Made by a program: the position numbers and the translations under genes
Part shown: one piece after another, positions 2,966 to 47,756 of the stretch
Layout: every line of letters starts with the position of its first letter
Position numbering within the stretch: position 1 is the first letter of the stretch
Notes under the pieces: model-generated
The model's database searches: none
Seen by the model: only the letters and a program-made list of their open reading frames with translations
What the model was told of the DNA's origin: nothing
NCBI GenBank assembly: GCA_037146775.1
Contig: JBAWWL010000003.1
Span: 133,956 to 197,955, forward strand
Direction: 5' to 3'
Origin: Candidatus Omnitrophota bacterium
Lineage (GTDB): Bacteria; Omnitrophota; Gorgyraeia; Duberdicusellales; 4484-171
Length of the DNA: 64,000 nucleotides

Positions 2966-3445
2966 TTGTCGCGGGGGTATAGGAATATGGCAAAATTATC
3001 CGTTAACGATAAGATTTGTGTAATTATCACCAGCCTTTTTGGCGTTGGTTTTGCGCCGCTTTTCGGCGGCACGCTTGCTTCGGTTGTTGCGGTAGCCGTG
3101 TTTCTCCTGGTAAAAAGTCAGTTCTATTTTTCTCTGATTACTGTTTTTTCGATTATTCTTGCTTTTGCGTTATCCGGACACGCCGAAAAAATTTGGGACG
3201 AAAAAGATTCCAAGAAAATCGTTATTGATGATTTCTGCGGAATGCTTGTTTCGTTGCTGTTTATCCCGTACGACATGCGGATGGTGGCGTGTGGTTTTGT
3301 CGTATTTCGTTTGTTTGATGCTTTCAAGGTTCCGCCTATCGATAGAATCGAAAACCTCAAAGGCGCAGCCGGCGTAGTGGGCGACGATATAGCGGCCGGC
3401 CTGTATACCCTCGTTATTCTTCATATAACCAAACTTTTTATTTAA
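2966..3445 (+). CDS. pgpA: Phosphatidylglycerophosphatase A
   Basis: It has PgpA-family motifs ('DDFCGMLVSLLF', 'FRLFDAFKVPPI', 'GVVGDDIAAGLY'). It is adjacent to pgsA, as is common. Confidence 0.75.
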   Translation: MSRGYRNMAKLSVNDKICVIITSLFGVGFAPLFGGTLASVVAVAVFLLVKSQFYFSLITVFSIILAFALSGHAEKIWDEKDSKKIVIDDFCGMLVSLLFIPYDMRMVACGFVVFRLFDAFKVPPIDRIENLKGAAGVVGDDIAAGLYTLVILHITKLFI

Positions 3446-3448
3446 TGA

Positions 3449-3498
3449 GCACATTATTTTTTCTGCGTGTTTCCGCACTTAGAAAAAAATAATAGTGC
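3449..3498. repeat. About 48-nt AT-rich palindromic element (copy 1), immediately after the pgpA stop; terminator-like
   Basis: 'cacattattttttctgcgtgtttccgcacttagaaaaaaataatagtgc'. The arms are an inverted repeat (gcac-tattattttt / aaaaataat-gtgc). A near-identical element occurs at 37757-37806. Confidence 0.5.
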
Positions 3499-3585
3499 GA
3501 ATTATCCCGCCGTAGTCGCTAATAATTCCCTACGGTAATTCTTAGCGTATCTGGCGAAGGCGGGATAACGTCAAATCCACCGACT

Positions 3586-3704
3586 TATAGTCGGTGGTGG
3601 GGCTCAAGGGGGCGAAGTTCCCATACCCTATGTTGTCCACCAACAAAGTTGGTGGCAGGTATTCAAAGATATTTGGGAGAAACCACCGAAGAATTCGGTG
3701 GTAA
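3586..3704. other. Three consecutive hairpins with near-identical 8-bp stems CCACCRAM / KTYGGTGG (unexplained structured region between convergent genes)
   Basis: The hairpins are 'ccaccgacttatagtcggtgg', 'ccaccaacaaagttggtgg' and 'ccaccgaagaattcggtgg'. Upstream at about 3512-3572 is a nested pseudoknot-like set of inverted repeats (cccgcc/ggcggg, ccgtag/ctacgg, cgctaa/ttagcg). No ORF lies here on either strand. Confidence 0.4.
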
Positions 3705-3733
3705 TTCATGCGACTCGCTAGATACCCCCAACC

Positions 3734-4285
3734 TTATCCTTTTTTCATGGCTGCGGAGAATATTCTTTCATATACCGGGCCGGTAGGCTTGAGGGTGCTT
3801 TTAAAAAGAACAATTTCCTTAACAGGCATTTTTTCCTGAACGGAAACTTTTTTTAGTTCATTTTTTAAGGCTTCGATATTTTTTGTGCTTTTTAACCGGG
3901 CCAAGGTAATGTGCGAAGTGAATCTATTTTCTTTGGCAAATCCCAACTTCTCAAGCGCATCTTCCAGTTTCATTGCTATATGTTTTAATTCTTCTTCTCT
4001 GTTTGTTGCCACAAAGAATACGCGGGGGTGTTTTTCGTTGGGGAAGAATCCAAAGTTATTTAAAGTTGCTTCCAGGCAGCTAGACCAGTCGGCAGCCTCT
4101 TTAATAACTTTTTGAATCTCCGCTATCTTTTCTTCAGTTACTTCCCCTAGGAACTTGAGGCTGAGATGAAGATTTTTATCTTGAACCCATTTTGCATCCA
4201 AGTCGTATTTCGTAAACCCCTTTATCAATAAAGCGAGTTTTTGTTTGATTTCGTCAGGCAGGTCTATGGCGATGAATAAACGCAT
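3734..4285 (-). CDS. thpR: RNA 2',3'-cyclic phosphodiesterase (2H phosphoesterase, LigT/ThpR)
   Basis: It has two HxT/Sx motifs ('HLSLKFLGEV', 'HITLARL') and is 183 aa long. Confidence 0.8.
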   Translation of the reverse strand: MRLFIAIDLPDEIKQKLALLIKGFTKYDLDAKWVQDKNLHLSLKFLGEVTEEKIAEIQKVIKEAADWSSCLEATLNNFGFFPNEKHPRVFFVATNREEELKHIAMKLEDALEKLGFAKENRFTSHITLARLKSTKNIEALKNELKKVSVQEKMPVKEIVLFKSTLKPTGPVYERIFSAAMKKG

Positions 4286-25290: not shown

Positions 25291-25420
25291 GCCCAGCTCC
25301 GCTTTCCATGAGAATGGTCACGCCTTGTGGCTACAGCTACTCGCTGCGTTTCCGCTTTTGGTGAGCCTCGTCTTCGGCGGGAAACTTTGTCGAAGCGGGC
25401 GAACCCCCCTTTTACTTATT

Positions 25421-25565
25421 AAACCCGAAACACTAAACCCTAAATCCTAAATAAACTCAAAACGAAAAAATAAAAATTCAAAACGATACTATTTTGAGTT
25501 TGAAATATTTAAGTTTTTGGTTGTTTGTTTGTTTAGGATTTAGGGTTTGAGGTTTAGAGTTTATG
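25421..25565. repeat. Long AT-rich inverted repeat (about 60-nt arms) between convergent genes; bidirectional terminator-like
   Basis: 'aaaccctaaatcctaaataaactcaaaa' ... 'ttttgagttt...tttaggatttagggttt'. The arms are exact reverse complements over 17 nt or more. It is preceded by a short GC-rich segment at 25291-25400. Confidence 0.6.
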
Positions 25566-25638
25566 GTAAGAAGTTACTATTACATCTAGGCCAACGCGGG
25601 TATCGTTTTTGCTGTCACCAAAGAAGATTTTATTATGT

Positions 25639-36718: not shown

Positions 36719-37711
36719 ATGGCACAGGTGTATTATGACAAGGACGCGGATCTTGATTTATTAAAAGGCAAAACCATCGCTATCATCGGCTACGGTATTC
36801 AGGGTCGCGGCCAGGCGTTGTGTTTACGCGATACGGGCTGTACCGTAATTGTTTCGGAGCTTTCAGGTACACCGAACTATGAGCAGGCAAAGAAAGATGG
36901 TTTTAATCCTGTTTCTGCCGCTCAGGCCGCTACAGAAGGAGACATTATCCAGATTTTAACTCAAGATCATGTACAGGCGAAAGTGTACGCAGAACATATT
37001 AAGCCAAACCTGAAAAAAGGAAAAGCGCTTTGTTTTTCGCACGGATTTAATATCCGTTTTAAACAGATAAAACCGCCAAAAAATGTAGACGTCTTTATGG
37101 TTGCTCCTAAGGGCCCAGGAGCTTTGGTGCGGCGTATGTATGAGGAAGGTAAGGGTGTTCCTTGTTTAGTCGCAGTTTTCCAGGATGGATCAGGCCAGGC
37201 AAAACAGCTTGCGCTTGCTTATGCGAAAGCCATCGGCGGTACTCGCATGGGAGTTATTGAAACAACTTTTGCGGAAGAGACCGAAACCGATTTATTTGGT
37301 GAACAGGCGGTGCTTTGCGGTGGTGTCAGTGAGCTGATCAAGGCTGGTTTTGATACTTTGATCGAAGCAGGATATCAACCGGAGATTGCTTATTTCGAAG
37401 TACTACACGAATTAAAGCTCATTACAGATTTAATACAGGAATTTGGTATCAGCGGAATGCGGCGCCGAGTTTCCAATACTGCGTGTTACGGTGATCTCAC
37501 CAGGGGGCCGATGGTAGTTAACGAAAAAACACGTAAAACCATGCAAAAGATTCTTAAAAGTATCCGCTCGGGAAAGTTTGCGCGGGAATGGATCAAAGAA
37601 AATGAAGCCGGCAGAAAGAATTTTGATAGCCTTTTGAAGAAAGGCGATGAACACAAAATAGAACAAGTAGGAAAACAGCTTCGGGAAATGATGCCTTGGA
37701 TGAAAAAATAG
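36719..37711 (+). CDS. ilvC: Ketol-acid reductoisomerase
   Basis: It has '[23 protein letters not shown]' and '[12 protein letters not shown]'. The RBS is 'aaggagg'. Confidence 0.9.
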
Positions 37712-37756
37712 ATCCTTCGGTTGCTTTGCAGCCTCAGGATTAATTCGCACTATTAT

Positions 37757-37806
37757 TTTTTTGCGTGCCTTTGACACTTGGAAAAATAATGTGCTTATTA
37801 AAATGA
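37757..37806. repeat. About 48-nt AT-rich palindromic element (copy 2), 45 nt after the ilvC stop
   Basis: 'gcactattatttttttgcgtgcctttgacacttggaaaaataatgtgc' is near-identical to 3449-3498. Confidence 0.5.
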
Positions 37807-37827
37807 TGCCCTGGATGAAAAACAAAT

Positions 37828-37898
37828 AACAGAAGACAGAAAACAGAAGTCAGATAATTTTTTTCTGACCTCTGTCATCTGATATCTGACTTCTGAAT
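37828..37898. repeat. Heptad repeat element in hairpin configuration (site C): four direct RACAGAA heptads, a T-run loop, five inverted heptads
   Basis: 'aacagaa gacagaa aacagaa gtcagat aattttttt ctgacct ctgtcat ctgatat ctgactt ctgaata'. Confidence 0.65.
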
Positions 37899-45901: not shown

Positions 45902-46020
45902 GGAATCGTGATAGTCTTTTCCTGCCTTCTCGCAGGCCGCTATCACGCGCTCATAAAGATTGAGCAAACTTTTCACGGGGAAGTATTTTTGTGTTTCGAT
46001 GTGTGATAGTAAAGAGCGAG

Positions 46021-46057
46021 CCCTAAAAAGGCTCGCTCTTTTTTTGGCAAACCCCAG
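46021..46057 (+). terminator. Rho-independent terminator
   Basis: 'agagcgagcc-ctaaaaa-ggctcgctct' followed by TTTTTTT. Confidence 0.7.
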
Positions 46058-47685: not shown

Positions 47686-47756
47686 ACAGCGCCTGTATTT
47701 TAAGAAAGCAGCATAACAGTGTGTTTCTTAAGCCAGGCGCTGTTTTTATTTTTTGA
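47686..47756 (+). terminator. Rho-independent terminator (long hairpin cagcgcctg...caggcgctg plus a T-run)
   Basis: 'cagcgcctgtattttaagaaagcagcataacagtgtgtttcttaagccaggcgctgtttttatttttt'. Confidence 0.6.

Follow-up and report, generated by a model that had tools for sequence, protein, structure and literature searches.

Structured spacer between pgpA and thpR

The window analysed here, a 64-kb stretch of an Omnitrophota genome, carries the convergent genes pgpA and thpR, whose arrangement is as given in the preliminary description and whose identities are borne out by Pfam (PgpA and LigT/ThpR 2H phosphoesterase, respectively). They are separated by a 288-nt spacer (3446–3733), the most structured of 25 scored intergenic gaps (z ~ −8, both strands); for 3490–3740, the minimum-free-energy (MFE) z-scores against shuffles are −4.6 (+ strand) and −5.3 (− strand). 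The G+C content of the region, 0.48–0.54 compared with roughly 0.3–0.5 in the flanks, agrees with the earlier remark that it is GC-richer than its surroundings, and the stems and hairpins described at that stage are all present in the sequence. The region had also been called ORF-free; ORFs of 36–55 aa do occur, with no support for them as genes. Searches for known RNAs returned zero Rfam 15 matches at the gathering score in the whole 64-kb window, noise only (best E > 3) in a permissive Rfam search of 3300–3900, and no match at the gathering score in nine homologous loci. A tRNA/tmRNA scan of the window found none, consistent with the initial impression that the region resembles neither, and no sigma-70-type promoter was detected in 3300–3900.

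Eight relatives (ThpR 45–69% identity) retain the pgsA–pgpA and thpR–cinA gene orders, with pgpA and thpR still convergent. Their two genes overlap or lie 0–137 nt apart, and none of the eight has a sequence resembling the window spacer. Because the block is absent from these eight syntenic relatives, the 288-nt spacer is specific to this Omnitrophota lineage. Comparison of the spacer among relatives, which had been put forward as a check on an RNA gene, reveals no conservation at this locus. A scan of genome contigs with ThpR recovered only two distant relatives, and the spacer is missing in both. Features of the spacer, together with a second copy of one of them elsewhere in the window, are as follows.

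3441–3504: 62-nt AU-rich palindromic module, GCACATTATTTTTT...AAAAAAATAATAGTGC, overlapping the stop codon of pgpA and a few bases at the start of the region originally described
3502–3568: 'pseudoknot-like' hairpin with a 10-bp outer stem, TTATCCCGCC (3502–3511) and GGCGGGATAA (3559–3568); not part of the presumed transposon relic
3566–3709, + strand: very probable gene-less mini-element (PATE-like) derived from the IS200 group, with a left end (LE) and a right end (RE) and no transposase gene; left boundary uncertain, 3566–3569
3573–3576, + strand: presumed guide tetranucleotide AAAT of the left end, 5′ of the first hairpin
3577–3597, + strand: first left-end hairpin, CCACCGACT-tat-AGTCGGTGG, 9-bp stem and 3-nt loop
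3598–3630, + strand: G+C-rich left-end hairpin, TGGGGCTCAAGGGGGCGAAGTTCCCATACCC (alignment A1 columns 39–65; fold of 3566–3709)
3637–3655, + strand: second left-end hairpin, CCACCAAC-aaa-GTTGGTGG, with a conserved TGT just before it
3679–3709, + strand: right end, comprising guide GAAA (3679–3682), hairpin CCACCGAA-gaa-TTCGGTGG (3683–3701) and then TAATTCAT
3706–3709, + strand: presumed cleavage tetranucleotide TCAT, closing TAATTCAT
3710–3733: remainder of the spacer from the right end of the element to the thpR stop codon, 24 nt, read from sequence
37741–37805, − strand: second copy of the 62-nt AU-rich module, downstream of ilvC

Within the 3502–3568 hairpin, the stems ccgtag (3510–3515)/ctacgg (3531–3536) and cgctaa (3518–3523)/ttagcg (3543–3548) do interleave, the observation on which an H-type pseudoknot had been proposed. 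The case for a pseudoknot is weaker than first described: the CC of ccgtag also belongs to the outer stem, the nested MFE fold occupies the GG of ctacgg, and GUAG/CUAC (4 bp) is left as the sole pairing available to a pseudoknot. The 47-nt interior proper holds just one perfect 6-bp stem. The hairpin has fold z-scores of −3.3 (+) and −4.4 (−) and no homolog in any locus fetched. On the − strand, a T-run (complement of 3483–3489) comes some 10 nt after it, and the sole terminator-like site in 3300–3900 is a weak one at 3510–3497 on the same strand. As a guess, it may be the native 3′-end hairpin of thpR, with the transposon inserted right at its foot.

The AU-rich module (fold z-scores −5.4 and −4.2 for 3441–3504) has the consensus TTTAAT-R-AGCACATTATTTTT...AAAAAAATAATAGTGCGAATTA, and its two copies are identical at 22/22 core positions with extended similarity beyond. 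The window with 17 kb of flank (81 kb) and the fetched loci contain no third copy. Following the direction of transcription, each copy comes directly after a gene (thpR or ilvC) and a G+C-rich hairpin. At ilvC, a 20-nt direct repeat, ATGATGCCYTGGATGAAAAA (37686–37705 and 37802–37821; 19/20 identical), duplicates the last ilvC codons and brackets an insert of roughly 95 nt that contains the hairpin and the AU-rich module; judged from its sequence, this arrangement resembles an att-like scar or a long target duplication. A target duplication around the whole 3446–3733 spacer, considered by analogy with the ilvC copy, amounts to a weak AT-rich resemblance by eye and was not counted. A small MITE and a shared 3′-end element are both candidates for the module, and together with the 3502–3568 hairpin, also separate from the element, it may represent 3′-end or terminator-like structures.

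Two further structured sites were noted in the window. At 25400–25570, a spacer between convergent genes contains a long AT-rich imperfect inverted repeat with CCCTAAA/TTTAGGG-like heptads (aaaccctaaatcctaaat ... tttaggatttagggtttgaggttt; fold z-score −5.3, + strand). At 37823–37895, immediately upstream of leuA, lies a long imperfect hairpin with CAGAAG/CTTCTG-type repeats and a T-run in its loop region, which could be a leader or attenuator structure.

Homology to IS200-type insertion-sequence ends

The CCACC-N-GGTGG pattern occurs three times in 64 kb, each time at this site (0.15 in shuffles, with 0/100 shuffles reaching three). The gaps between the three hairpins measure 39 and 27 nt, not about 35 and about 20 nt as first stated. 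Their mutual similarity was correctly recognized, although the first has a 9-bp stem and a 3-nt loop rather than the 8-bp stem ascribed to all three. None is followed by a T-run on either strand. The element that they define is 144 nt long (3566–3709), its + strand corresponding to the transposase-sense 'top' strand, and no coding gene lies between its ends, hairpins 2 and 3 being only 27 nt apart.

To find related loci, metagenomes were scanned for two CCACCRA-N5-TYGGTGG hairpins 15–45 nt apart, with matches at 120 loci or more (at least 120). The matches listed comprise two classes, the first of which reproduces the hairpin order of the window read on the + strand. Among the matches listed, L157 (about 213–812), L199 and L241 are complete insertion sequences of ~600 bp. 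Their left end consists of TAATTAAY-RAGCTAAA, a hairpin CCACCGAT..ATCGGTGG, TGGGG-G+C hairpin-ATATGT and a second hairpin CCACCAAA..ATTGGTGG, followed by tnpA; the right end, after the 143-aa ORF, reads AAG-hairpin CCTCCGAC..GTCGGGGG-TAGTTGAC. The ORF encodes an IS200/IS605 Y1 transposase (Pfam Y1_Tnp, 4.9e-43), scoring 162 bits against NCBIfam transpos_IS200 (cut-off 55) and 29 bits against the REP-associated model REP_Tyr_transpos, below its cut-off of 80. In MAGs of Thermodesulfovibrionales, Desulfobacteraceae and Schekmanbacteria, close homologs of this TnpA carry the annotation IS200/IS605 transposase. Gene-less copies composed of LE and RE were also present, in unrelated gene neighbourhoods: L150 (with L225 and the near-identical L147), L206, L145, L155, L249 and L173. 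L249 has lost tnpA, its ends being 98% identical to those of L157; in L173, about 25 codons of tnpA are left. In viral contigs, neither the module pattern nor the left-end signature gave a match (0 each); a loose two-hairpin pattern gave >120 unrelated matches there, many on giant-virus (GVMAG) contigs, none of which passes the stricter pattern.

One of the solo elements, L155 (543–600), differs in its left guide region, where CTAAA is replaced by CCCCA. Its first hairpin can thereby extend to CCTACCCCACCACTGAC...GTCAGTGGTGGGGTAGG, an alternative structure that competes with the G+C hairpin.

An nhmmer profile built from five solo elements, with the window excluded, matches window positions 3572–3708 on the + strand (E = 6.6e-17, 55.6 bits, profile positions 21–152 of 167). 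This is the only site matched in the window; the other match is the same region on the − strand (E = 0.0011), which arises from the palindromes and is far weaker, fixing the + orientation of the element. The window element is collinear with the LE and RE of the full insertion sequences L157, L199 and L241 (L157 and L199 ends in alignment A1), and the signature GGTGGTGGGG...TGTCCACCAA...TTGGTGG is common to the window, L157, L199, L201, L241 and L249. Over the aligned end blocks, the window is 66–69% identical to the other subfamilies, which are 70–92% identical among themselves.

Base pairing is conserved across these copies. In alignment A1 (nine sequences), 94% of the cells in the four helices are paired, compared with 28–60% when partner columns are slid, and both sides change at four pairs, representing few independent events. 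Pairing reaches 100% in helix 1, the first left-end hairpin, where one pair switches between C-G and U-A. The compensatory changes that had been proposed as evidence for a structured RNA are therefore present in the stems, but they separate transposon copies rather than orthologous RNAs. A 2-nt insertion together with two mispairs weakens the G+C-rich hairpin of the window. The G-T wobbles in this hairpin and in the L157-type right-end hairpin pair on the transposase-sense strand (+ in the window) alone, in agreement with the top-strand activity of the IS200/IS605 family (PMC3201880).

The element is flanked by GGCGGGA|TAACG... on the left and ...TTCAT|GCGACTC on the right, and reading of the sequence gave no target duplication or terminal inverted repeat at 3566 / 3709, as expected for the IS200/IS605 family (PMC7290912). 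A tblastn search with TnpA found no match in the window, and neither a second copy of the element nor a tnpA was detected in the window plus 17 kb of flanking contig (L251, L252), about 81 kb of genome. The nearest relative without the element has 69% thpR identity, and the insertion is read from relatives at ≤69% protein identity.

Related hairpins also occur in tandem arrays. Loci L131–L250 (e.g., L170 9181–9523, L158 2419–3048, L169 and L234) contain CCACC[GA]AC-NNN-GT[CT]GGTGG arrays with a period of 62–66 nt, whose loops vary and are often reverse-complement pairs (GCA/TGC, GAA/TTC); each unit of the L170 array holds a second hairpin, CCTAC-agctaa-GTAGG. A coding repeat was rejected for the metagenome arrays because periods of 62–66 nt are not multiples of three. 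A separate contig set (Ga01804xx) carries CCACCGATGGCATCGGTGG at a 36–41-nt period, and L166 (2782–2960) has five tandem 35-nt units like repeated insertion-sequence right ends, each a hairpin CCACCGAC-aag-GTCGGTGG followed by TGTTGAC. On the soil contigs L160 (gene 257–1462; arrays 98–260 and 1147–1790) and L242 (gene 950–1939; array from 2003), inverted arrays of about 65-nt units with the CCACCGAC-NNN-GTCGGTGG hairpin flank a gene for a ~275–330-aa protein in which the Y1_Tnp domain occurs twice in tandem (two stretches matched by Pfam; transpos_IS200, 129 bits). From its domain layout, this appears to be a REPtron-like arrangement with a fused, putative 'single-chain dimer' Y1 protein.

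Guide and cleavage-site pairing at the element ends

In IS608, TnpA does not read its cleavage sites directly; recognition runs through a four-base guide, 5′ of each hairpin foot, that pairs with the cleavage tetranucleotide, the left pair being C_L = TTAC and G_L = AAAG (PMC3201880). Right-end classes are given here as the guide and the last four bases of the 8-nt tail. Three combinations occur: AAAG/TTAC in L150, L206, L145, L155 and L173; CAAG/TGAC in L157, L199, L241 and L249; and GAAA/TCAT in the window (3679–3682 / 3706–3709). Across the three classes, cleavage base 2 and guide base 1 read T-A, G-C and C-G, and cleavage base 4 and guide base 4 read C-G, C-G and T-A, with the other two positions invariant. 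Right-end guide and cleavage site thus covary in three classes, and the pairing scheme that we infer from this covariation is consistent with the IS608 pair TTAC/AAAG. Since GAAA/TCAT fits the scheme, the right end of the window copy still looks functional, as far as its sequence indicates.

The left end behaves differently in the window copy. In seven loci, TAAT lies 12–13 nt upstream of the hairpin, as predicted by the guide TAAA. The window guide AAAT predicts TTAA; the flank reads GGGATAA (3562–3568), and the TAAT of the family is absent. Use of the guide/cleavage rule to place the left boundary of the window copy gave no clean answer. This departure from the rule argues for a decayed copy and not an unrelated one. 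With its left boundary unclean and no tnpA in sight, the window copy is probably now a stranded relic.

Interpretation of the block and its known counterparts

Taken together, the block at 3566–3709 is very probably a stranded, gene-less PATE of the IS200 type (IS200/IS605 family) lying between pgpA and thpR. Hairpin 1, the G+C-rich hairpin and hairpin 2 would constitute the left end, and hairpin 3 with TAATTCAT the right end. The element would have inserted into the short spacer of the convergent pgpA/thpR pair in this Omnitrophota lineage, and the pre-insertion site would read ...GGCGGGA(TAA)|GCGACTCGC... By analogy with characterized members of the family, the near-identical CCACC...GGTGG stems would fold as single-stranded DNA hairpins on the top (+) strand and be bound by a dimeric HUH/Y1 transposase, TnpA, supplied in trans. 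TnpA would then locate its cleavage sites through the four-base guide 5′ of each hairpin foot, which pairs with the tetranucleotide to be cleaved, and single-strand 'peel and paste' movement would create no target duplication and would not depend on terminal inverted repeats. Mobilisation of the window copy by such a TnpA is what we infer from these correspondences.

PATEs, or palindrome-associated transposable elements, are gene-less LE+RE derivatives of IS200/IS605-family elements, known from Haloquadratum (PMC3119063), Halanaerobium (PMC7290912) and Geobacillus (PMC10055086); the gene-less metagenome copies such as L150 and L249 belong to this class. The window element resembles them in being 144 nt long, non-coding and intergenic, without terminal inverted repeats or target duplication. 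It differs in being present as a single copy with no cognate tnpA in 81 kb, in its left boundary and target motif, which are not intact, and in its left end, where two transposase-type hairpins accompany the G+C hairpin, giving three near-identical stems instead of the usual two. With IS608 of Helicobacter pylori, the mechanistic model for IS200/IS605 (PMC3201880), the family shares subterminal hairpins at both ends and a guide 5′ of the hairpin foot that pairs with the cleavage tetranucleotide; one subfamily here even carries the IS608 left-end pair TTAC/AAAG, at its right end. Top-strand-specific activity is a further likeness, TnpA binding and cleavage being predicted by analogy for the window family. 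The putative cleavage sites, however, lie ~12 nt 5′ (left) and 4–8 nt 3′ (right) of the hairpins, compared with 19 and 10 nt in IS608, the window family is without tnpB, and the stem sequences differ.

IS200 of Salmonella and Yersinia belongs to the IS200 group, encodes tnpA only, measures roughly 600–700 bp and has a TnpA of about 140–150 aa, and its left-end hairpins block read-through transcription and occlude the ribosome-binding site. The window family likewise encodes only TnpA and has a structured left end upstream of tnpA, whereas its end sequences are unrelated to those of IS200. REP/BIME sequences and their RAYT proteins offer another parallel, as extragenic palindromes recognized by a Y1/HUH enzyme and often located between convergent genes, and soil contigs carry REP-like arrays of the window-type hairpin sequence on either side of or next to Y1 genes. 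In contrast to REP/BIME, the window block is low-copy, has an LE–RE architecture instead of a repeated single unit, and belongs with an IS200 transposase rather than a RAYT as cognate protein.

Rival readings and significance

The preliminary description preferred a small structured RNA gene. That reading, taken as an independent small RNA gene or as a structured thpR 3′ UTR possibly co-opted from transposon ends, with hairpins acting in RNA stability, termination or protein binding, now appears quite unlikely. It draws on strong predicted structure on both strands and on the order of features on the − strand, where the block is followed by a G+C-rich hairpin and the T-run 3483–3489 that could end a thpR read-through transcript; moreover, IS200 ends give rise to regulatory RNAs in Salmonella. 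Against this, no Rfam family matches, no promoter-like site exists in 3300–3900, the spacer is missing in all syntenic relatives, and the only homologs are IS200-family ends or their gene-less derivatives in unrelated contexts. The profile match and G-T wobbles also favour the + strand, which is antisense to thpR. Very unlikely, too, is a REP-type (BIME-like) repeat cluster spread by a domesticated RAYT and not an insertion-sequence remnant. The tandem arrays of the CCACCGAC-NNN-GTCGGTGG hairpin, with a 62–66-nt period in many soil contigs, would suit such a cluster, as would the REPtron-like inverted arrays flanking a Y1-domain protein in L160 and L242. The window block, however, is collinear over its whole length with LE and RE, including the G+C hairpin and right-end tail, unlike the 65-nt array unit. 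It is moreover one cluster in about 81 kb (three hairpins in 64 kb, none in a further 17 kb), where REPs are typically abundant, and the full-length protein scores with transpos_IS200 and falls below the REP_Tyr_transpos cut-off.

That the hairpins are terminator clutter, i.e., stacked intrinsic terminators for two convergent genes, is highly improbable: the position of the block between convergent genes and the ability of perfect palindromes to fold on either strand are as expected, but the three hairpins are without a T-run on both strands, real terminators in the window have canonical T-tracts (e.g., 46011–46048 and 47686–47755), relatives manage with 0–50-nt spacers, and the homology to insertion-sequence ends is left unexplained. 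Palindromic sites for a dimeric DNA-binding protein had also been suggested, an idea close in spirit to sites for a dimeric TnpA, which in the IS200/IS605 family binds subterminal palindromes as top-strand single-stranded DNA hairpins (PMC3201880; PMC7290912) and not as double-stranded operators. As a double-stranded operator array for a dimeric transcription factor, the block is scarcely credible: the half-site CCACC is common to the three palindromes, yet the 3′ ends of two genes are the wrong place for operators, the homologous sequences are ends of transposons, and compensatory changes at the central bases maintain the hairpins rather than a constant distance between half-sites (3-nt loops, or 5 nt if the stem of hairpin 1 is counted as 8 bp). 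A CRISPR-like mini-array was rejected because the 'repeats' differ by compensatory stem changes and are spaced 60 and 46 nt apart; it is also contradicted by the metagenome arrays, with their variable loops and periods that are not fixed.

As the hairpins are the ends of an IS200-family element without its transposase, the very probable PATE is an ordinary transposon relic and not a new RNA gene, and the adjoining hairpin (3502–3568), the AU-rich module (3441–3504) and the relic together mimic one large structured RNA. There is an outside chance that the relic has been co-opted, either with the 3502–3568 hairpin and T-run as an sRNA or a long structured 3′ UTR following the gene for ThpR, an RNA-repair-type enzyme, or as a transcriptional insulator between the convergent genes, and, separately, that the 62-nt AU-rich palindrome is an undescribed tiny mobile element.

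For annotation, a striking RNA-like region is thus explained by a known class of mobile DNA and should not be reported as an RNA gene. The analysis also documents an IS200-group family with gene-less derivatives and a left end that bears two transposase-type hairpins. The covariation at the right end adds independent comparative support for the IS608 recognition rule in uncultured lineages, covering Omnitrophota and contigs whose closest transposase matches are named Thermodesulfovibrionales, Desulfobacteraceae and Schekmanbacteria.
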